Shown here: positions 1,921 to 44,490 of the stretch, piece after piece | Numbering within the stretch: the stretch's first letter is position 1 | Layout of the letters: every line of letters starts with the position of its first letter | Source of the DNA: a phage | Sequence record: PZ019086.1 | Length of the DNA: 64,000 nucleotides | Direction: 5' to 3' (one strand) | Notes under the pieces: model-generated | What the model was told of the DNA's origin: nothing | What the model saw: the letters and a program-made list of their open reading frames with translations, nothing else | Databases searched by the model: none | Translations under genes and position numbers: made by a program

Positions 1921-2775
1921 TCACAATGAAGAAAATTCTTTAACTAAAGCCTGTAATGAAGCCTCTATTGGATATCCATTCTTAACTAACATTTTCCTAA
2001 ACATCACATGTTTAGGACGATTATATGATATCCACAATTCATACAATTTATCTTTATTATCCCAATGATAGCCTTTTCGTCGAGATGCTATATGAGCTTT
2101 TCTAATCTCCGGATTTTTCCAACTAGCGGCTACTGAATTTGATATAGCTATTTTATATTCAGGTTTTGATAAAGCAACACGAACAGCCTTTTGGTGTTTA
2201 ATTTTATTTTCTTCGTTATTAAACCATTCCCTTGAAGCCATTGAAATTTTTTGTTTTGTTTTAAAATTATTTAATCTTTCTTTGTTATCTTTCCTATTTT
2301 TTGCTACTGAAAAGTATTTTAATGCTCTTTCTCTAGCAGCATTTCTATTTTGTGGATTTGAATAATATTGTTGAAGCCTTTTTGATATTGTGTCACTTAC
2401 ATCTTGTTTTATAAAACTATATTCAGCAGCTATTAAATCAACTTCGGCTAAAGATAAATTTTTATATGTTTTTCCTGACATCATTCTATTTAAAGCATTT
2501 AGCATTTTTCCATTTTTACCTTTTGCTAATAAGAAATGTGCTTTAAAATGATTAAAATGACTTAAATTAACTAAATTCCATGTAGATTTTAAATATTCAG
2601 GAAATATTGATTTAGGAAGCACATGGTGTGCTTCCGTTTTACCTGGAGTTTTAACAGTTGAATTCATAGAAATAAAATTAATGTAAGACTTGGCGTCTTC
2701 TTCACTCAACGCTAATTTTTCAACTAATTCCTTTATTAAAAATTCATCATTAATGTCAAGTTTAAAATTCTTCAC
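1921..2775 (-). mobile_element. Freestanding HNH homing endonuclease (Mob-like) with C-terminal NUMOD-like repeats
   Basis: 284 aa; motif EAHHVLPKS...NLVNLSHFNHFKAH typical of HNH Mob proteins; basic repeated C-terminal segments; lies between genes 46 and 47. Confidence 0.55.
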
Positions 2776-3222: not shown

Positions 3223-4238
3223 TGTGTTGCCTCTACATATAACTGATTTGCATATTGAATAAGTGCTTCGCGGTCAGAATCAGTGATGTCTGGAATTGCA
3301 TTAATGTATTCTTCCATCAACGTCTGAAGAGATTGAACTTCAACTTCTTCACTATCATCTGACTCGACAGAGTTATCAATCTTTGACACAACTCGTAATG
3401 AATGCACAACTTTTTCTAGTTCAGATTCGAACTTCGTTAGATTTTTGTCTACTTCAGTTACTATAACACGCACTGATAGATTTGTAAAATCTTTATAGTC
3501 AATTTTTCCCTTAAATGGATATTGAATTCGACGATGCCAGGTAGTGTTGTTTGGAATAAATTCCATTCGTTCTGTTTCTGTATCAAACATCCAGAACCCG
3601 CGAGGGTCATTCTCGTCACCTGCAGTTAATGTCCATGGTGTCCCAATATATTTGACGTTAGCAGCCTCAGAGATAGTATGGAAGTGACCAGACCACACCT
3701 CTTTATAAGTCTTAAGGAAATCAGGTTCAAGACCGTGAGATTTCATTCCTTTATAAAAATAAAATCCATTCAGTTCCCAGTGACCAACACAAAAAGAAGC
3801 AGATGAAGTTTTGATGTGTTCAAGAATTTCACCAGTATTTTCTTCACACATCCAAGGAATTAAATCAATCAAACATCCGTCAAAATCTACTGTAGTAGGC
3901 TTATCATATACTTTAACATTAGGATATTTAGCCAGAAGCTCAGTAGAAGCATTTGGATGCATTACATTTTTGTAGTGGAGATCGTGATTTCCTACAATAG
4001 TATGTAATGTGATTCCAGCACCATCAAGCATTTGAACTATTTCACGGGCAAACTCCATAGTTTTATGCGTGATCGCTTTTCGTACATCAAAAATATCACC
4101 GTATTGAATCCATACCGTAATTCCATTTTTCTTAGAATATTCTATCGCTTGCTTAATTCCATCAATTTGAATACCGCGAATCCACTCATCATCAGCTTTA
4201 ACACCTAAATGCCAATCACCTAAATTTAAAATTTTCAT
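3219..4238 (-). CDS. 47: Recombination endonuclease nuclease subunit gp47 (SbcD/Mre11-like)
   Basis: 339 aa; N-terminal phosphoesterase motifs LGDWHLG, GDIFD, GNHD; size equals T4 gp47. Confidence 0.9.
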   Translation of the reverse strand: MKILNLGDWHLGVKADDEWIRGIQIDGIKQAIEYSKKNGITVWIQYGDIFDVRKAITHKTMEFAREIVQMLDGAGITLHTIVGNHDLHYKNVMHPNASTELLAKYPNVKVYDKPTTVDFDGCLIDLIPWMCEENTGEILEHIKTSSASFCVGHWELNGFYFYKGMKSHGLEPDFLKTYKEVWSGHFHTISEAANVKYIGTPWTLTAGDENDPRGFWMFDTETERMEFIPNNTTWHRRIQYPFKGKIDYKDFTNLSVRVIVTEVDKNLTKFESELEKVVHSLRVVSKIDNSVESDDSEEVEVQSLQTLMEEYINAIPDITDSDREALIQYANQLYVEATQ

Positions 4239-6569: not shown

Positions 6570-7110
6570 ATAAAAAATCCAAACTAGGAGAATCGTCTAC
6601 AACACTTTTCTTTTCAGCCCCTGGTGTTCTATAGGTTGATTCTTCGTAATGCGTCATTTTATCATAGATGTCTTGAATAAAAGTTTCATCTACTAACGCA
6701 ACCATATCGTCGTCACGACTGTCATAGACATTGTGAACGAAGTAACTATATTTCTTTGCAACTTCCTTACGTTCTTTTTTAATACGTTGGACGAATGCAT
6801 TAAAACAAGCTTGAGTTATATATGCATGTGGGTTTTTATATTTCGTTTCATCAAAATTATGAAGCCCCTTAATAGAAGCTTCTATACCATCTGCAATCAT
6901 TTCTTGTTTCCAGGATTGGGTGTATCCTGAAAAGTTGAAACGTTTAGATAAGCCTTCTGCAATAAGCATAATGGCCAATCCGATAGTATCATTCTGACGA
7001 ACTACTTTATTTGGGTCTTTATTATTTGCTAATTCTGTTTTCCAATCAATAATAGCTTGTAAAAGCTCTTTATTGTTTACGTAATTATATTTAGGCTTAG
7101 TTTCTGACAT
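6553..7110 (-). CDS. 55: Late-transcription sigma factor gp55
   Basis: ORF 6553-7116; sequence from [23 protein letters not shown] matches my recollection of T4 gp55, so the start is probably the second Met at 7110. Confidence 0.9.
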
Positions 7111-7989: not shown

Positions 7990-8205
7990 TTAAATTTTCC
8001 AGTTACCATTTTCATCAATAAATTTAATCCAGTCATTTACTGACCACTTGGTCGTATCGCCTTTTGGAGCAACATTTAAAGTGTATAATCCTTGTTTAAA
8101 AAGCATGCGTTTGATATTCATATTTTCCTCAGCTGTAACGATAGCACTCGTTTGATTTACGCTTAGCAACTCGTTGAGAAGTATTGTAATCAAAATCATC
8201 GTCAA
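7990..8205 (-). CDS. Hypothetical small protein
   Basis: 71-aa ORF directly abutting the previous ORF. Confidence 0.45.
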   Translation of the reverse strand: MTMILITILLNELLSVNQTSAIVTAEENMNIKRMLFKQGLYTLNVAPKGDTTKWSVNDWIKFIDENGNWKI

Positions 8206-8461
8206 TGTAAACTGATTTTTTCAACTTTCTTACTTCACCACGCAATTGACGATTTAGCTCATCTTTAACTTCTGAATCAATGCCTTTCATTCTACGCCAT
8301 TTATCTGAACGAAAAATGTTTTCAACCATATCTTTATGACTTACACCATCAGGAGCTTTACGCTTTCCGAAATAGTCATAATCACGAACTTTCAAGTCTT
8401 TACGACGATACGTTTTACCCATGGAGTTTAATTTCCTTAGCAACTGAACTAAATACAGCAC
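8129..8461 (-). CDS. Hypothetical basic protein (start uncertain)
   Basis: 110-aa ORF; Lys/Arg rich; overlaps the downstream ORF. Confidence 0.4.
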   Translation of the reverse strand: MLYLVQLLRKLNSMGKTYRRKDLKVRDYDYFGKRKAPDGVSHKDMVENIFRSDKWRRMKGIDSEVKDELNRQLRGEVRKLKKSVYIDDDFDYNTSQRVAKRKSNECYRYS

Positions 8462-8597: not shown

Positions 8598-8619
8598 ATC
8601 AAATCCTCAAAGGCAATTC

Positions 8620-8665
8620 ATGTGTTAATAATACCACAGTTTGAACTTCTTGTAAACAACTTTGT
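8620..8665 (-). promoter_or_regulatory. T4-type early promoter (minus strand: GTTTACA, 17-nt spacer, TATTAT)
   Basis: Minus-strand read ...cacaaagttGTTTACAagaagttcaaactgtggTATTATtaac. Confidence 0.5.
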
Positions 8666-8755
8666 GAAAATTATTTTAGGGAACGATAAGAAGGGAACGA
8701 TAGCTTAGAATGGTAATATACAGAATGCGAGAAAGAAAGGCCCAGAGGGCCCGTC

Positions 8756-12964: not shown

Positions 12965-13069
12965 TTAAGTCATTTATCGTTGGTTCATTATATACTGTTT
13001 CTTCATCAGTGTAAACCGGTTCTTCCGGCTCTGGCTCTACTGTTTCCCATCTAGCCGCCCACCAAGGTT

Positions 13070-19532: not shown

Positions 19533-19547
19533 TTTCTGTTCCTCCGT

Positions 19548-19600
19548 AGTTGATAGTTGTATAGTACCACAGAGGAACAGTCTTGTAAACCACTAAAAGA
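19548..19600 (-). promoter_or_regulatory. T4-type early promoter
   Basis: Shared motif gttgatagttgtatagtacca...tgtaaac (plus strand) = GTTTACA / TACTAT on the minus strand. Confidence 0.5.
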
Positions 19601-19907
19601 AACTTCTTTCACAATTTTTTCCACTGAACCAGGCGCTCACTGCTTTCTTAGTCTCAGGAGCAGTGTTATCCATAAACCATTCAAAGGCAGCCTTTTTATG
19701 ATTCTGGAGGGCTTCTCGGGCTTTAATCTGCTCACGGTCTATTAACACTAACATATGAGCCTTTCTTGTCACCATGGGCTTCTTATGATTTTTTGAATAC
19801 TCCCAGTCATTTGTCCATCGCATTGTCGTTGCGAACTGAAATACTGCTTCTTTAATTTTAGTTTCGTAAATTTCACGAGCCTTTGAGTATAACATCATTA
19901 CCTCCAT
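19593..19907 (-). CDS. Hypothetical protein
   Basis: 104-aa ORF. Confidence 0.5.
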   Translation of the reverse strand: MEVMMLYSKAREIYETKIKEAVFQFATTMRWTNDWEYSKNHKKPMVTRKAHMLVLIDREQIKAREALQNHKKAAFEWFMDNTAPETKKAVSAWFSGKNCERSFF

Positions 19908-20965: not shown

Positions 20966-20994
20966 TTTATTCTCCAATTTCACATTTGTTTTGA

Positions 20995-21045
20995 TAGGGT
21001 AATAGTATCACACTACTACCCTACTGTAAACAATTTATTTTAATG
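20995..21045 (-). promoter_or_regulatory. T4-type early promoter
   Basis: ttgatagggtaatagtatcac...tgtaaac motif. Confidence 0.45.
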
Positions 21046-21298
21046 TTCGCCAAATTTTTACTGCTTCGCGACGAGATACTTCTACAGCTCCAAGTTCTAC
21101 GGCTTTTTGGCGGCGGCGCGCGTGTAAGTCATAATGTTTAATGCGTTTATCTTGAAACCAAGAGCGTTTCATTCCTATTGCTTCTGCCATTTCATGAAGC
21201 TCTTCAATATCTCCATCAGTGAACATATGACAATTTTTAGTTGGATGACCGCGAAGTTTCCATCCATGATTCATTAAAACATCTACGTAAACTGTCAT
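21035..21298 (-). CDS. Hypothetical basic protein
   Basis: 87-aa ORF; its ATG overlaps the stop of the upstream small ORF (ATGA). Confidence 0.5.
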   Translation of the reverse strand: MTVYVDVLMNHGWKLRGHPTKNCHMFTDGDIEELHEMAEAIGMKRSWFQDKRIKHYDLHARRRQKAVELGAVEVSRREAVKIWRTLK

Positions 21299-21444: not shown

Positions 21445-21464
21445 TTTATTCCCCAAATCCACAT

Positions 21465-21535
21465 CAGTTGATAGTTGTATAGTACCATAAAGCTTTATGC
21501 TTGTAAACCGTTTTGTGAAAAAATTTTGAAATAAA
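21465..21535 (-). promoter_or_regulatory. T4-type early promoter
   Basis: cagttgatagttgtatagtaccat...tgtaaaccgttttgtgaaaaa. Confidence 0.5.
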
Positions 21536-21538
21536 AAA

Positions 21539-21556
21539 GGGAGCCCGAAGGCTCCC
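21539..21556 (-). terminator. Stem-loop with CGAA tetraloop
   Basis: gggagcccgaaggctccc palindrome after the stop of ORF 21559-22569. Confidence 0.4.
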
Positions 21557-21558
21557 TA

Positions 21559-24546: not shown

Positions 24547-24674
24547 TACATGCTCCTTTGAATAATATCAATAATGTTGTTCACCAGATTATAAGTAAAC
24601 ATTGGGTAATTATATTGAATCATCACATACACAACAAACAAAACTTTCATTCTCTTCTCCTTGGCAGTTGGCAA

Positions 24675-24725
24675 GATTACTATATCATAACCTTGCCAAC
24701 TTGTAAACCATTAAATGACGTTTTC
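24675..24725 (-). promoter_or_regulatory. Early promoter with a 13-bp inverted repeat in its spacer / -10 region
   Basis: ggcagttggcaag ... cttgccaacttg flanking attactatatcataac, followed by tgtaaac (plus-strand view). Confidence 0.35.
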
Positions 24726-24873
24726 AATAAAATTCTGGAGTTTTGTGTGAGCATCAACCATGATTTTCATTTCTTCCTTTGCAAAAGCTATGCCTCTTTC
24801 CCTAGAAGAACACTCATAGTCAGAAACTGCATTAGCATATTCTTCAATTAGCTTCATTAAAAACATCTGCTTT

Positions 24874-25462: not shown

Positions 25463-25484
25463 GATGTTCTCCTCTTTATCCGAT

Positions 25485-25530
25485 GGTTGTATAGTATCAC
25501 AGCTCAAATGGAAAGTAAACCGGTAAAATG
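25485..25530 (-). promoter_or_regulatory. T4-type early promoter
   Basis: gttgtatagtatcac...agtaaac motif. Confidence 0.45.
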
Positions 25531-25534
25531 AAAA

Positions 25535-25552
25535 AAGTCTCCCGAAGGAGAC
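25535..25552 (-). terminator. Stem-loop with CGAA tetraloop
   Basis: agtctcccgaaggagact. Confidence 0.4.
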
Positions 25553-25557
25553 TAATG

Positions 25558-29662: not shown

Positions 29663-29721
29663 GTTATTCTCCTCTTAACTGATAGAAAAATTATACCACA
29701 GTCAAGAGGAAAAGTAAACAG

Positions 29722-30042
29722 TTATTCTTTAAATCTAATCAATTTATTCATAGACTTTGTAACTTCTGCACGAACCTCATGTAGGTTTTTAAGCTGTTCA
29801 AGACGCTGCTCATAGTAAGCAATTTCATCTTCTTCGAGACAGTCCTGCGAATCTTCTTTAAGATAACGTGCATAGTCCTGGAAAGCTTTACGGACTACTT
29901 CCCGGAAGTCATCAAGACTTTGAATTTTCTTAGGAGCAACAGATACACGACGAGGGGCAGTATAATACTCATAACCAAACCCTGCGCTTAATTGAGCCAT
30001 TAATATTTTTCCTCTGGTTGGAACACAGCACGACAAGCCCAC
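29722..30042 (-). CDS. Hypothetical protein
   Basis: 106-aa ORF. Confidence 0.5.
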
Positions 30043-32497: not shown

Positions 32498-32812
32498 TTA
32501 TTCTTTAGGGAAGTTTTTAGAGTATGCGTCATAAAGTTTATTACCAATACGACGGAAGACTCTAGCTGCAAAACGGTTTTCAGGGTTTTTAATCATGATT
32601 TGCATCATGTAAGTTCCTGCATCCGAAAGAGCTTCTTCATAGTACCCATTAATTTCTTTAAGAGTCCTACGTTTACCACCAGGACCATCAACAGTAATTT
32701 TCCATTTACCTGTAGAAGTGCGGCTCGGTGGCTCAACTTGTTCAATCCAAATATAACCACCTTCAACGCGTTGGTTGGCGGATTCTGCAATAAATTCTTT
32801 ATATGTTTTCAT
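32498..32812 (-). CDS. ipII: Internal protein II-like with capsid-targeting leader
   Basis: 104 aa; N-terminus MKTYKEFIAES. Confidence 0.7.
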   Translation of the reverse strand: MKTYKEFIAESANQRVEGGYIWIEQVEPPSRTSTGKWKITVDGPGGKRRTLKEINGYYEEALSDAGTYMMQIMIKNPENRFAARVFRRIGNKLYDAYSKNFPKE

Positions 32813-32834
32813 TTTTGTTTCCTTATTTGTTTTG

Positions 32835-32880
32835 ATAGAGTAATTATACCATATTAATACTTAAGCGTAAACTGTTTAAG
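32835..32880 (-). promoter_or_regulatory. Early promoter (minus strand GTTTACG ... TATAAT)
   Basis: Plus strand gagtaattataccat...cgtaaac. Confidence 0.4.
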
Positions 32881-33136
32881 CTTTACCGCCAGAAATAATT
32901 CCGAAGGTGTTAAAATCATATCCAATATCGTCAACATCTACTTTAGGGCTTGCTACAACGTAAGCAATTTCACTACGTTTTGCATAGGTGTTTATTTCTC
33001 TACCATCGCCGCCTAGGAAAGAATACCCATTACGTTTTAATGAGCCAAAATCTTCGGCATCACCAACGAAAGCTTTAACTTTAAATTTGGGGCCTTTGAC
33101 ATCTGCTTCAGCGATAAATTCTTGATACATTTTCAT
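32876..33136 (-). CDS. Additional internal-protein-like ORF with capsid-targeting leader
   Basis: Starts MKMYQEFIAEA after a GGAGGA Shine-Dalgarno; about 87 aa. Confidence 0.6.
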   Translation of the reverse strand: MKMYQEFIAEADVKGPKFKVKAFVGDAEDFGSLKRNGYSFLGGDGREINTYAKRSEIAYVVASPKVDVDDIGYDFNTFGIISGGKA

Positions 33137-33154
33137 TTTTCCTCCAAGTAGTTG

Positions 33155-33200
33155 ATGAATGTATAGTATCAAAGTCCTTGGAGGAAGTAAACACTATTTT
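33155..33200 (-). promoter_or_regulatory. T4-type early promoter
   Basis: gttgatgaatgtatagtatca...agtaaac. Confidence 0.45.
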
Positions 33201-33475
33201 TCTGAAGCGCCTGAAATATATTTTTCAAGACGTTGTTTCATTAGCGAGCCGTTCTTAGCGATTTCTTCCGGTTTATCGCACATACGCAACAAGGCTTCAA
33301 GCTTAACGATATCGCTGGTACGTTCAAATTTGCGAGTATCTATCTTACTAGCAAGTTCAGAAATACGTGCTAATAGACTTTCAGCTTCAACCAAAGCTGC
33401 ACCTAGCTTAGTTGCAAATGTGTCGGTAGCTTCGTTAAGAATAGATTCCGATAAAAATTCACTATATGTTTTCAT
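33194..33475 (-). CDS. Additional internal-protein-like ORF with variant capsid-targeting leader
   Basis: 93 aa; N-terminus MKTYSEFLSES. Confidence 0.55.
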   Translation of the reverse strand: MKTYSEFLSESILNEATDTFATKLGAALVEAESLLARISELASKIDTRKFERTSDIVKLEALLRMCDKPEEIAKNGSLMKQRLEKYISGASEK

Positions 33476-37101: not shown

Positions 37102-37127
37102 TTTGTTTACTCCTCTGTGGTTGATAA

Positions 37128-37175
37128 GTCTATAGTATCACCATCCTTGGTGCTTGTACATCATTATTTTAATTT
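37128..37175 (-). promoter_or_regulatory. Promoter-like element carrying the CCAAGGATGG motif next to TGATACTAT (minus strand)
   Basis: Motif recurs at 15562, 18987 and 37151. Confidence 0.3.
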
Positions 37176-37501
37176 TTCCAACTTAACAACTTGTAGTGTC
37201 CTTCATTAATACGTGGTTTATCCCAAGAAATACTAATATATGATTCACTGTCAATAGAAGTCGCCGGGTTTTTCTCTACCGTAAGACCTTCACTTTCCAG
37301 CCATTCAATAGTATTTGCGCATAAATCGGAAGAACACCTCATCGGAAACCGGCAAGATTTTTCACCTTTAGCTGCAGTGTTATACATCTTTTCCAAAATA
37401 CGCTTTTGCACGTTTTTAAAAATAGTTTCAGCAGATTCTTCAGATTTTTTATTCAGTTCAGTATAAAGACTCATAACATTCTTCTCATTAATAGGGCTCA
37501 T
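37169..37501 (-). CDS. Hypothetical protein
   Basis: 110-aa ORF. Confidence 0.5.
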   Translation of the reverse strand: MSPINEKNVMSLYTELNKKSEESAETIFKNVQKRILEKMYNTAAKGEKSCRFPMRCSSDLCANTIEWLESEGLTVEKNPATSIDSESYISISWDKPRINEGHYKLLSWKN

Positions 37502-37531
37502 AATATCTTAATCATGAGCCCATGTAAACAA

Positions 37532-37807
37532 TTATTTCATATTATTGAAATATTCTTCTGCAATTTCATCATTATCGTGGTAAACTTTAGAAGACAGTTT
37601 AACATAACCTTCTGCTGTGAACATGTTAATCACAACTTTTACAGTATACCACTGGCCGTCTTCATTACCCATTACTGCGTAAGTTTCAAACATCGGATGG
37701 TCAGGACCGATAACTTTAATATCATTCACTGTACGACCGAAATCTTCTGAAACACATTTCATAAAGAAGTTGAACAGTTCGCCGTAATTATCCATTTTAT
37801 TCTCCAA
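37532..37807 (-). CDS. Hypothetical protein
   Basis: 91-aa ORF with strong upstream promoter motif. Confidence 0.5.
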   Translation of the reverse strand: MENKMDNYGELFNFFMKCVSEDFGRTVNDIKVIGPDHPMFETYAVMGNEDGQWYTVKVVINMFTAEGYVKLSSKVYHDNDEIAEEYFNNMK

Positions 37808-37824
37808 GTTGTTTTCTGTATCAG

Positions 37825-37895
37825 TAGTTGATAGTTGTATAGTACCATAGAAGAACAGGAATGTAAACAGTTTTGTGAAAAATTTTTTAAAAAGT
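37825..37895 (-). promoter_or_regulatory. T4-type early promoter with A/T-rich upstream element
   Basis: Minus strand aaaaatttttcacaaaactGTTTACAttcctgttcttctatggTACTATac. Confidence 0.55.
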
Positions 37896-38171: not shown

Positions 38172-38344
38172 GTCAAAAACGCTACTCGGCTTACGGCAAA
38201 GATATTTCCTCGAATCGATAATTCTGTGCGCCGTTTCTGCTGTGATGTAAGGGGATATTAACAAATCGTAAAGATTTATTAAGACCAGTCCTTACTCAGG
38301 GAACATCAGTCCGACGACTTACCGGTAGCGACCCGGCTTCTTGT

Positions 38345-38420
38345 CTGGTCGAGGCAGTAGGGATCGAACCTACGACCTAGGACTTAGAAGGTCCTTGCTC
38401 TTCCTTCTGAGCTATGCCTC
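38345..38420 (-). tRNA. tRNA-Arg (anticodon UCU), CCA encoded
   Basis: Hand-folded cloverleaf; anticodon loop CTTCTAA; T-loop GGTTCGATCC. Confidence 0.8.
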
Positions 38421-38424
38421 GGAT

Positions 38425-38499
38425 TTGGCGGACGTGATAGGATTCGAACCTATAACCAATCGCTTAACAGGCGATCGCTCTGCCATTGAGCTACACATC
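38425..38499 (-). tRNA. tRNA-Asn (anticodon GUU), CCA encoded
   Basis: Acceptor GGATGTG/CACGTCC; anticodon stem ATCGC/GCGAT; loop CTGTTAA. Confidence 0.7.
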
Positions 38500-38503
38500 C
38501 AAA

Positions 38504-38590
38504 TTGGTGGGGAGTGATGGAGTCGAACCACCCGAGTCGCAATGACAATGGATTTACAGTCCACACCGCTACCTCTACGGGATAACTCCC
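38504..38590 (-). tRNA. tRNA-Tyr (anticodon GUA), long variable arm, CCA encoded
   Basis: Acceptor GGGGAGT/ACTCCCC; anticodon loop CTGTAAA; 87 nt. Confidence 0.7.
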
Positions 38591-38603
38591 CTTAATTCTT
38601 AAT

Positions 38604-38678
38604 TTGGTGGCCCTGGGTGGAATTGAACCACCATCTGGCGATTATGAGTCGCTTGCTTGAACCTTCCAGCTACAGGGC
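38604..38678 (-). tRNA. tRNA with anticodon CAU (Ile lysidine-type or elongator Met)
   Basis: Acceptor GGCCCTG/CAGGGCC; anticodon loop CTCATAA. Confidence 0.7.
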
Positions 38679-38679
38679 C

Positions 38680-38755
38680 TTGGTGCTGATTGACGGAATC
38701 GAACCGCCGACCTTCTCATTACAAGTGAGTTGCTCTACCTACTGAGCTAAATCAG
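38680..38755 (-). tRNA. tRNA-Thr (anticodon UGU)
   Basis: Acceptor GCTGATT/AATCAGC; anticodon loop CTTGTAA. Confidence 0.8.
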
Positions 38756-38760
38756 CAAAA

Positions 38761-38850
38761 CTGGCGGAGGCGATAGGATTCGAACCTATGAGTCGCTGGA
38801 GCGACTGCCGGTTTTCAAGACCGGTGCATTAAACCACTCTGCCACGCCTC
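38761..38850 (-). tRNA. tRNA-Ser (anticodon UGA), long variable arm
   Basis: Acceptor GGAGGCG/CGCCTCC; anticodon loop CTTGAAA; 90 nt. Confidence 0.8.
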
Positions 38851-38852
38851 CA

Positions 38853-38926
38853 GTCTCCGTGGCAGGATTTGAACCTGCGACATTCTGCTCCCAAAGCAGA
38901 CGCTCTACCAAACTGAGCTACACGGA
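38853..38926 (-). tRNA. tRNA-Pro (anticodon UGG), CCA not encoded
   Basis: Acceptor CTCCGTG/CACGGAG; anticodon loop TTTGGGA; the next tRNA follows immediately with no CCA. Confidence 0.75.
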
Positions 38927-38936
38927 GTAAATTAAA

Positions 38937-39010
<74 letters not shown>

Positions 39011-39015
39011 CAAAT

Positions 39016-39102
39016 TTGGTGCGAGAAGTGGGACTCGAACCCACAAGGAAATCATTCCGCAGCATTTTAAGTGCTGTGCCTTTACCAATTTGACCATTCT
39101 CG
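39016..39102 (-). tRNA. tRNA-Leu (anticodon UAA), long variable arm
   Basis: Acceptor GCGAGAA/TTCTCGC; anticodon loop CTTAAAA; 87 nt. Confidence 0.8.
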
Positions 39103-39103
39103 C

Positions 39104-39176
39104 GCTGGGAATAAAGGACTCGAACCTTTGCATCTAGCAGTCAAAGTGCTATGCCTTACCAACTTGGCTAATTCCC
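39104..39176 (-). tRNA. tRNA-Gln (anticodon UUG), CCA not encoded
   Basis: Acceptor TGGGAAT/ATTCCCA; anticodon loop CTTTGAC. Confidence 0.75.
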
Positions 39177-39265
39177 AATTATTAACAAAGGCTCTCAAAC
39201 AAGAACCCTTGATGATAGAGGGGGTATTAATCAGTGCGATATAAGTTAATAATAACACATAATTC

Positions 39266-40646: not shown

Positions 40647-40667
40647 TTTATTCTCCTCAGTAGTTGA

Positions 40668-40720
40668 TAGGGTAATAGTATCACAACTAAAACCCTATGT
40701 AAACAACTTTGTGAAATATT
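40668..40720 (-). promoter_or_regulatory. T4-type early promoter
   Basis: gttgatagggtaatagtatcac...tgtaaacaactttgtgaaatattt. Confidence 0.5.
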
Positions 40721-40722
40721 TA

Positions 40723-41010
40723 TTACAAAAGATTTTTAGCAATAATCTTGAGATGTGCCGCAGAAATGTGTTTAGCTTTAAACAACGCAGTTTCTTCAGC
40801 AGGAGAGATAATGATTGTAGCACCATCCTTTTTAGCAGACCACCCATCGCCTAGGTAAACAGTACCTTTGATTTCTTCGCCATCAACCAGACTAATCATT
40901 GGTTTACCTTCTCGTCCTTTATTTGCTTTAATAACTTCAGAAGTAAGAGTAGCTTCGGTAATGGTAGAAACCGGGGTAGTTGTAGAAGTAAATTCTTTAA
41001 ATGTTTTCAT
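40723..41010 (-). CDS. ipI: Internal protein I precursor (IPI; the mature IPI* is an injected anti-restriction protein in T4)
   Basis: 95 aa; body ATLTSEVIKANKGREGKPMISLVDGEEIKGTVYLGDGWSAKKDG... matches my recollection of T4 IPI; leader MKTFKEFTS... is a variant capsid-targeting sequence. Confidence 0.8.
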   Translation of the reverse strand: MKTFKEFTSTTTPVSTITEATLTSEVIKANKGREGKPMISLVDGEEIKGTVYLGDGWSAKKDGATIIISPAEETALFKAKHISAAHLKIIAKNLL

Positions 41011-41034
41011 TTTATTTTCCTAATTAATTTTGAT

Positions 41035-41082
41035 GAGATAATAGTATCACTACCTCATCAGCGTGTAAACAACTTTGTGAAA

Positions 41083-41085
<3 letters not shown>
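41035..41085 (-). promoter_or_regulatory. T4-type early promoter
   Basis: gatgagataatagtatcac...tgtaaacaactttgtgaaattatttt. Confidence 0.5.
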
Positions 41086-41779
<694 letters not shown>

Positions 41780-42493: not shown

Positions 42494-42542
42494 ATGTTTC
42501 TCCTCAAATTTAGTTAAGATTATAACACATGAAACTTAAGCA

Positions 42543-43073
42543 TTAAACTTCTGCTATAATTTTGCCATCTTTTTCTACTTGAAAATACGTATAAGGAATC
42601 GTTGCTGTGCATACTAAGGCTGGGTCTGAATCTTCTGTGTAGCTAAATTCTACTTCAGACAGGTCAGAAACCCAGGGCTTATAAAAATTTATTGACATCA
42701 CGATTTCAGTTTTACTATTATCTAAAATGTAAAGCGTAATGTATTCAGGACCTGTTTTTTGGGCAGTATTTTCGCCTGTAAGATAGTTACTAGTTCCTAG
42801 CATCCATTCATACATTCCTATCCACGACTTAAGCTCTTCATCAACTATAAATCTCACAATGAGTGGGTCGTACTCAAATGTAACTCCTGGACGCTGTGCT
42901 CGGCCTAGTCCAAACGGCCCAGTCACGGTATCAGTAACAGGTATCCTAATTCCCGGAATAGGAACTGACTGAGCATTTAAAGTAAAAGCAGATGTAGTAT
43001 TACTATGCGGTATTGATACTACAAAGTTAGTTGTATTTGCTTGGTTAAAAATTTGTTGTAGTGCTTGCGACAT
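42543..43073 (-). CDS. 3: Tail tube terminator / sheath stabiliser gp3
   Basis: Starting at the internal Met gives 176 aa, equal to T4 gp3; the listed ORF extends 27 codons upstream. Confidence 0.75.
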   Translation of the reverse strand: MSQALQQIFNQANTTNFVVSIPHSNTTSAFTLNAQSVPIPGIRIPVTDTVTGPFGLGRAQRPGVTFEYDPLIVRFIVDEELKSWIGMYEWMLGTSNYLTGENTAQKTGPEYITLYILDNSKTEIVMSINFYKPWVSDLSEVEFSYTEDSDPALVCTATIPYTYFQVEKDGKIIAEV

Positions 43074-44467: not shown

Positions 44468-44475
44468 TATAAATA
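44468..44475 (+). promoter_or_regulatory. Late promoter box TATAAATA for gene 53
   Basis: Exact TATAAATA about 28 nt upstream of the gene 53 ATG. Confidence 0.6.
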
Positions 44476-44482
44476 GATAATA

Positions 44483-44490
44483 TATTTATA
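44483..44490 (-). promoter_or_regulatory. Late promoter box TATAAATA for gene 4 (divergent from the gene 53 promoter)
   Basis: Plus strand tatttata = TATAAATA on the minus strand, about 27 nt upstream of the gene 4 ATG. Confidence 0.55.

Follow-up and report, generated by a model that had tools for sequence, protein, structure and literature searches.

Strong early promoters of the T4-like type are used by host sigma-70 RNA polymerase in the first minute of infection, independently of phage protein synthesis. Compilations of the T4 early promoters (Pe) are reportedly provided by Wilkens and Rueger (1994) and by Miller et al. (2003). These promoters are described as very strong 'uber' sigma-70 promoters, in which UP, −35, TGn and −10 elements are accompanied by additional consensus (Hinton 2010, PMC2988021), and their GTTTAC sequence is located at −36 to −31 (Nolan 2006, PMC1524935). 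Transcription starts have been given for Pe57954, Pe26.4 (27,044), Pe40.4 (41,225), Pe35.3 (35,662) and Pe148.6 (150,727), several of which were verified by primer extension both in vivo and in vitro (Patterson-West et al. 2018). Primer extension confirms Pe40.4, Pe35.3, Pe41 and Pe148.6 in PMC6024815.

A second body of work describes promoter-early stem-loops (PeSLs), regulatory cassettes of T4-type phages and the basis of a shuffling model proposed with mini-circle evidence for RB49/phi1 (Arbiol et al. 2010, PMC2839356) and described also for PST/T4 (Comeau et al. 2014, PMC4122927). The PST/T4 PeSL consensus is TTTACW-N17-TAYWAT, and the RB49/phi1 stem-loops are located mostly between −35 and −10 or overlap the −10 element; one of them lowered downstream expression in a terminator-like manner. 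Terminator or attenuator activity and mini-circles are experimentally shown for RB49/phi1 only. The PeSL authors also cite a polymorphic internal-protein (IP) locus from Repoila et al. 1994.

The 64,000-nucleotide stretch of phage DNA analysed here (PZ019086.1; 'the window') contains modules that share with T4 Pe the GTTTAC at −36 to −31, the 17-nt spacer, TGn, TAnnAT, the A/T block, the +1 consensus and a position upstream of early genes. Nothing substantive separates the two sets, apart from a few extra window copies that precede alternative internal protein genes and small ORFs that T4 lacks, and single-base differences in a few orthologues (e.g. TACAAT versus TATAAT at the Pe40.4 orthologue). 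The modules resemble PeSLs in joining an upstream stop codon, an AT-rich block and a sigma-70-like promoter to an SD and ATG. Part of them also have a PeSL-like stem-loop, located between −35 and −10 or over −10, and some are associated with single-gene indels and with the internal-protein locus. They differ in that a significant stem is present in only about half of the window modules and is lacking in the module upstream of e.8 (37825–37895), with which this analysis began, and in that breakpoints relative to T4 are not, overall, enriched at the modules.

Early-promoter modules in a T4-like window

The window is a T4-like (Tequatrovirus) segment that shares ~95% identity with Tequatrovirus phages including GEP001, Aplg8 and Sf22. 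Its collinearity with T4 begins at ~33 kb of the T4 genome and extends to 78 kb or beyond, the T4 DNA used in this comparison reaching 78.0 kb, a short way beyond genes 53 and 5. The collinear minus-strand order comprises gene 46 (T4 33.3 kb), the tRNA cluster, ipI, 57B/57A and genes 1, 3, 2 and 4, and comparison with GEP001 identifies plus-strand late baseplate, tail-fibre and neck genes from 44.5 kb to ~63 kb, where the comparison ends. The G+C content is about 33–37%, and the GC skew switches sign near 44 kb. The tRNA cluster (38346–39177, minus strand) contains 10 genes (Arg, Asn, Tyr, Met, Thr, Ser, Pro, Gly, Leu and Gln), compared with eight in T4; Asn, Tyr and Met are extra, whereas the tRNA-Ile gene and the segB homing endonuclease of T4 are missing. 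An Rfam scan of the window returned the 10 tRNAs and nothing else.

Several larger differences in gene content were observed. An 862-bp insertion relative to T4 at 1896–2758, adjoining gene 46, encodes a 284-aa homing endonuclease (phrog_655; ORF 1921–2775, minus strand). The T4 genes mobB, mobC and mobD, the nrdD intron with I-TevII, and denV with ipII are missing from the window. A 366-bp segment of GEP001 (6592–6958, annotated with a 351-nt hypothetical CDS) is also missing, at 38342–38346; in GEP001 it is on the minus strand just downstream of tRNA-Arg, towards the rnaD/rnaC-homologous stretch and e.8.

A position weight matrix (PWM) scan identifies 14 modules in total, each named here by G, the coordinate of the first base of its −35-region hexamer. 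Outside these 14, two intragenic sites have published T4 early promoters as their orthologues. The e.8 module is described first, followed by the others.

37821–37891, minus strand: module 37868, early promoter of the e.8 orthologue
37891–37870, minus strand: UP-like A/T block of module 37868 (−59 to −38)
37868–37862, minus strand: −35 region, GTTTACA
37847–37845 and 37844–37839, minus strand: TGn (TGG) and −10 element TACTAT
37832, minus strand: A at the predicted +1, followed by SD GGAG at 37805–37802 and ATG at 37795
41023–41092, minus strand: module 41070, predicted +1 41034, ATG 41010, ipI orthologue (T4 G = 73939); stem TGATGAG/CTCATCA bracketing the −10 box
40657–40726, minus strand: module 40704, predicted +1 40668, ATG 40646, trna.4 orthologue (T4 G = 73572); stem ATAGGGT/ACCCTAT bracketing the −10 box
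37482–37551, minus strand: module 37529, predicted +1 37493, ATG 37474, 101-aa ORF missing from GEP001
37114–37183, minus strand: module 37161, weaker −35 ATGTAC, predicted +1 37125, ATG 37101, 58-aa ORF
33145–33214, minus strand: module 33192, predicted +1 33156, ATG 33136, alternative internal head protein; 10-bp stem TTCCTCCAAG/CTTGGAGGAA over the SD
32825–32894, minus strand: module 32872, predicted +1 32836, ATG 32812, 104-aa ORF
29672–29741, minus strand: module 29719, predicted +1 29683, ATG 29662, regB orthologue (T4 G = 62797); stem predicted to occlude the SD in read-through RNA
25473–25553, minus strand: module 25520, predicted +1 25484, ATG 25462, mobD.5 orthologue
25553–25536, minus strand: intrinsic terminator hairpin before module 25520
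24661–24730, minus strand: module 24708, predicted +1 24672, ATG 24650, mobD.2 orthologue, corresponding to T4 Pe57954; 10-bp stem AGTTGGCAAG/CTTGCCAACT bracketing the −10 box
21461–21557, minus strand: module 21508, predicted +1 21472, ATG 21444, inserted 49-aa ORF
21557–21538, minus strand: terminator upstream of module 21508; terminator and promoter identical to those of T4 upstream of nrdC.10
20984–21053, minus strand: module 21031, predicted +1 20995, ATG 20965, nrdC.10 orthologue
19543–19612, minus strand: module 19590, predicted +1 19554, ATG 19532, nrdC.8 orthologue (T4 G = 53943); 9-bp stem CTGTTCCTC/GAGGAACAG over the SD
8610–8679, minus strand: module 8657, predicted +1 8621, ATG 8597, 55.6 orthologue (T4 G = 41706, +1 41670)
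8165–8234, minus strand: intragenic site 8212, GTTTACA-N17-TACAAT without the extended consensus, predicted +1 8176
3442–3511, minus strand: intragenic site 3489, inside gene 47, TTTTAC 3489–3484 and TATAGT 3465–3460, predicted +1 3453

All 14 modules are co-directional with the early genes and positioned 19–37 nt before an SD/ATG. The PWM, which covers −58 to +8, gives 13–14 hits, all of them on the minus strand, and no hit in 20 Markov-null sequences. The simpler pattern GTTTAC-N18-TANNAT has 14 minus-strand and no plus-strand matches in the window, and GTTTACA-N17-TANNAT occurs 10 times where 0.1 is expected. In DNA as AT-rich as this, scanning with a generic sigma-70 consensus has no discriminating power (87 found versus 81 expected), so the case depends on the extended T4-specific consensus and on orthology. 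The early-promoter hits span 3.4–41.1 kb of the minus strand, with none in the plus-strand late region beyond 44.5 kb. One additional intragenic match, GTTTACA-N17-TATAAT at 12987–13016 (minus strand) in the pin/49.1 region, is a candidate early promoter without the extended consensus; no published T4 counterpart of it was found.

A first-pass annotation of this DNA had listed 11 such elements, all of which are present on the minus strand at its coordinates; it omitted modules 29719 (regB), 37529 and 37161 and the intragenic sites 8212 and 3489. The strand and the position before an ORF start that it gave for the elements are correct for all 14 modules, with no plus-strand hits and 5′UTRs of 19–37 nt. 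Its description of them as 'near-identical' is too strong: over −58 to +12, the pairwise identity averages 51% and reaches at most 79% (37868 versus 21508), compared with 27% for random pairs, and the spacer between −29 and −18 is at background (28%). Conservation therefore tracks the RNA polymerase contact positions, with no copied repeat. We agree with the same annotation that the elements are not a CRISPR array, as there is no CRISPR-like structure, the spacing is irregular (320 bp to >10 kb) at a mean identity of 51%, and protein-coding genes are located between the copies.

The module consensus, TTTCACAAA..tGTTTACa-N-TGnTActAT....ctATCAA, runs from about −50 to +6, and a longer form reads ..TTTTCACAAAA..tGTTTACa-(spacer)-TgTG.TActAT....ctATCAA. 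GTTTAC occupies −36 to −31 in 13 of the 14 modules (with T, not G, at −33), the exception being ATGTAC in 37161. The 17-nt spacer between TTTACx and TAnnAT is invariant (14/14) and is followed by TAnnAT or TATAGT at −12 to −7. The TG of the extended −10 element is found at −15/−14 in every module except 37529, which has no TGn (13/14). The UP-like region consists of the TTTTCACAAAA block at about −49 to −39, invariant in the JS98 orthologue, with further A/T runs upstream. The arrangement proposed in the first-pass annotation (A/T-rich UP element, GTTTACA, 17-nt spacer, −10 element) is thus found in the modules and corresponds to the published T4 Pe architecture.

Orthology provides a second line of support. 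The window-derived PWM finds 31 minus-strand and no plus-strand sites in 127 kb of T4. The T4 GenBank/RefSeq records contain no promoter features except a note naming Pe133295, so named in the record itself. Using the pattern (G/T)TTTAC-N18-TAnnAT, we found that all six published T4 Pe starts considered (133295, 57954, 27044, 41225, 35662 and 150727) fall precisely 36 nt downstream of the hexamer's first base, and this constant offset fixes the predicted +1 of every module. Three window sites pair with such promoters: 24708 with Pe57954, 8212 with Pe40.4 (start 41,225) and 3489 with Pe35.3 (start 35,662). By the old map-unit names, module 8657 is probably 'Pe41', and the probable T4 counterparts of 41070 and 40704 are 'Pe73' and 'Pe72.6', respectively. 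Across genera, the promoter blocks are conserved and the surrounding sequence is not.

The e.8 module illustrates this pattern. It is 95% identical to the T4 sequence upstream of e.8 (T4 G = 70696, predicted +1 70660) and, judging from the map units, is probably the T4 promoter 'Pe69.9'. The 261-nt region around it has matches in 592 phage records, typically at 7–8 places per genome because the modules are dispersed. An alignment of the window, T4, SH7 and two Dhakavirus genomes (JS98 and Esco_phi_B-01) contains three sets of invariant blocks: AAAAAT..TTTCACAAA..TGTTTACA, ATG.TACTATA.A.CTATCAA and GGAGA..AAATG. In the Dhakaviruses the UP/−35, TG/−10, start-site and SD/ATG blocks are kept whereas the spacer and 5′UTR diverge, and the DNA upstream of the e.8 promoter is unrelated, with a different ORF and terminator. 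Read from sequence, the conserved blocks are a phylogenetic footprint of a predicted promoter and ribosome-binding site. Literature searches turned up nothing specific on e.8 expression or on T4 transcription start site maps.

Every sequence feature, the orthology to T4 and the promoter blocks conserved between genera support the T4-type early promoter assignment first made from the window alone. The first-pass annotation did not mention the stem-loops or the connection with gene-cassette indels, which the PeSL literature already covers. We place the probability that the modules serve a T4-like phage as sigma-70-dependent early promoters (Pe) at about 0.93, an estimate that comes from sequence comparison. 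Modules of this kind, whether regarded as T4-type early promoters or as PeSL cassettes, are already known; the result is confirmed but ordinary.

Sequences resembling other T4 promoter classes were also noted in the window. GTTTAATGCTTAAGTTTCATGTGTTATAAT, at 42519–42548 (minus strand) upstream of gene 1, combines a MotA-box-like TGCTTA at about −30 with an extended −10 element, giving it the look of a middle rather than an early promoter. Two TATAAATA late motifs are arranged back to back (44468–44475, plus strand, and 44483–44490, minus strand) in the intergenic gap from which gene 4 (minus strand) and gene 53 (plus strand) diverge; across the window, this motif is not enriched (10 versus 10.9 expected).

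Gene cassettes bounded by modules

In most modules the stop codon of the preceding ORF is 1–4 nt from the −35 region, so that a module makes up approximately the entire intergenic gap. The gap-filling PeSL composite, from the preceding stop codon through the AT-rich block and the early promoter to the SD and ATG, is accordingly present in the window modules. Canonical terminators were found upstream of only two modules in the terminator scan of the window. A recurring RBS/start block, GGAGAATAAAATGAAAAC with close variants, is located at the ATGs at 41010, 40646, 37795, 21444, 20965 and 32812, and a block of this type is the recombination junction of the nrdC.10 cassette.

Three indels are bounded by modules. 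The first is a 459-bp insertion relative to T4 that contains two small ORFs and is bracketed by modules 21508 and 21031. Its junction is a GGAGAATAAAATGAAAACT block common to both modules; following the insertion, nrdC.10 is driven by module 21031, and the T4-identical terminator and promoter are now at 21508. The second is a 354-bp one-ORF cassette relative to GEP001, the closest relative, with edges inside 37529 (upstream) and 37161 (downstream) and a crossover at the stop codon/−35. The third, a 644-bp insertion relative to GEP001, has one edge inside module 32872 and carries two alternative internal-head-protein genes together with module 33192. These three indels fit the PeSL shuffling model. 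Between ipIII and e (32498–33475, minus strand), the window contains three extra small ORFs, and the downstream two each have their own early promoter (modules 33192 and 32872). The ORFs at 32876–33136 and 33194–33475 match internal head protein families. This region is the polymorphic IP locus cited by the PeSL authors.

The three indels, whose edges are inside or adjoin modules, and the published model for RB49/phi1 and PST/T4, with its mini-circle evidence, favor an alternative emphasis: that the modules are mainly recombination linkers or mobile regulatory cassettes (PeSLs), with promoter activity as a by-product. This reading is largely compatible with the promoter assignment and differs from it in emphasis. 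Breakpoints relative to T4, however, are not enriched at the modules overall (3 of 32 within 60 bp, versus about 2 expected; p = 0.32), and most other indels are gains or losses of homing endonucleases. The absence of enrichment leads us to reject, for this window, the proposition that most indels are PeSL-mediated. In addition, conservation concentrated at RNA polymerase contacts, with the spacer at background, indicates selection for a promoter and not for length of homology. We consider recombination as the main role of the modules possible, but distinctly less probable than a promoter function.

Stem-loops and remaining alternatives

Many modules have a spacer complementary either to the bases just past the −10 box or to the SD region. 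In the commoner geometry, the arms are located at −30 to −17 and −6 to +6 and the extended −10 element occupies the loop; in the second, the 3′ arm covers the SD. A perfect stem of at least 7 bp brackets the −10 box in 7 of the 14 modules, compared with 5.6% of random positions (p = 4e-6). In module 37868 the best stem measures 4 bp and is not significant. The association was replicated with 20 T4 promoters outside the window's region, where stems of at least 8 bp are present in 3 of 20 versus 1.5% (p = 0.003; rank test on the same set, p = 0.002). It was observed again among 80 non-redundant modules from IMG/VR contigs, 23% of which have stems versus 5.3% (p = 2e-7); these modules were picked with a matrix blind to the arms, and the control consisted of arms cross-paired between modules.

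The stem sequences are unrelated between modules (TAGGGT, TGATGAG, AGTTGGCAAG and others). One orthologous pair contains a compensatory change, GGCAAG/CTTGCC in the window versus GACAAG/CTTGTC in T4. G·U pairs are tolerated somewhat more than A·C, which hints at folding of the sense strand, a lean that is not decisive between RNA- and DNA-level stems. At the DNA level, presentation of the −10 box in a hairpin loop may ease its melting.

The position of the 5′ arm upstream of a module's own +1 means that the hairpin can form only in read-through RNA. The predicted SD accessibility in read-through RNA versus the module's own transcript is 0.02 versus 0.86 for the regB module and 0.00 versus 0.77 for 19590, and it is also sharply lower in read-through RNA for 33192 and 25520. 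For 37868 the corresponding values are 0.16 and 0.87, arising from weak predicted structure (MFE −13.4) and no stem. For the modules as a class, we did not retain SD occlusion in read-through RNA, since the comparison with control gene starts is borderline (p = 0.054); the prediction applies to individual modules only.

An arrangement of this type is known from the T4 genes e, soc and 49 and from I-TevI, where long early transcripts fold into a hairpin that masks the ribosome-binding site, whereas transcripts that start at a promoter within this hairpin leave the site free. Modules 29719 (regB), 19590, 33192 and 25520 are similar in having the 5′ arm upstream of their own +1. They differ from these classic cases, in which the internal promoter is late, in that their internal promoter is early and the effect is predicted. 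In several modules the 3′ arm covers the SD; the corresponding role, occlusion of the ribosome-binding site in read-through RNA, was not found stated in the accessible portions of PMC2839356 and PMC4122927.

These observations suggest a tentative proposal, which we regard as doubtful in its full form. In a quarter to half of T4-type early promoters, the spacer would be complementary to the post-−10 sequence or to the SD, with a conserved geometry but unrelated stem sequences, and the resulting hairpin would mark RNA by its promoter of origin, with read-through transcripts attenuated or translationally silenced and local transcripts fully translatable.

The dyad symmetry of many modules is also typical of operators, and the mechanism by which T4 early promoters are shut off is still unknown (Hinton 2010, PMC2988021). 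The modules could on these grounds be operators for a phage or host DNA-binding regulator, or belong to another T4 promoter class (MotA middle or gp55 late). We judge this very improbable. The dyads differ completely between modules, so no single sequence-specific protein could read them, and the invariant blocks are exactly the sigma-70 and alpha contact elements at canonical spacing. A MotA-dependent middle promoter was rejected because TGCTT of the MotA box, (a/t)(a/t)(a/t)TGCTTtA, which replaces the −35 element in that class, is not found at −30 in any module, and a late promoter because none contains TATAAATA. Chance hits in AT-rich DNA, or functionless remnants of dispersed repeats, have a negligible probability: although shuffled sequence yields generic sigma-70-like matches just as often, the extended motif is found 10–14 times versus 0–0.1 expected, is confined to the coding strand of the early region, has a start codon 19–37 nt further on in every case, and is conserved across genera.

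Proposed mechanism and significance

With the modules taken as early promoters, we propose that host RNA polymerase holoenzyme, unmodified or Alt-modified, would bind them through four contacts: the alpha-CTDs with the A/T-rich UP element, sigma region 4 with the GTTTACA −35 element, sigma region 3 with the TGn extended −10 and sigma region 2 with the TAnnAT −10. Transcription would start 36 nt beyond the G of GTTTAC, with the A in the conserved CTATCAA as its first base, and short leaders of 19–37 nt would run directly into the SD and ATG. As a module fills nearly the whole gap between small early genes, many early ORFs would have their own strong promoter. In about half of the modules, the inverted repeat places its 5′ arm in the untranscribed spacer, and read-through RNA alone would fold; this hairpin may act as a transcriptional attenuator or, for some modules, make the SD inaccessible. 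The modules would also act as short homology patches where gene cassettes come and go, as in the published PeSL model. Initiation at the predicted +1, its timing and the function of the stems are the steps that we infer.

For this phage, the analysis supplies about 16 predicted early transcription starts. It also marks small ORFs, including those for alternative internal head proteins, as candidates for independent expression as immediate-early genes. The current understanding of T4 transcription is unchanged. The additions are a quantified and replicated PeSL stem statistic and three clean promoter-bounded gene cassettes; new at most are the quantitative support for the stems and the possibility that the promoter of origin gates translation, the latter a prediction from modelled RNA structure. 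In their accessible portions, the PeSL papers cover the terminator/attenuator part only. If true, the proposal would provide a general 'insulator' logic for early gene cassettes.
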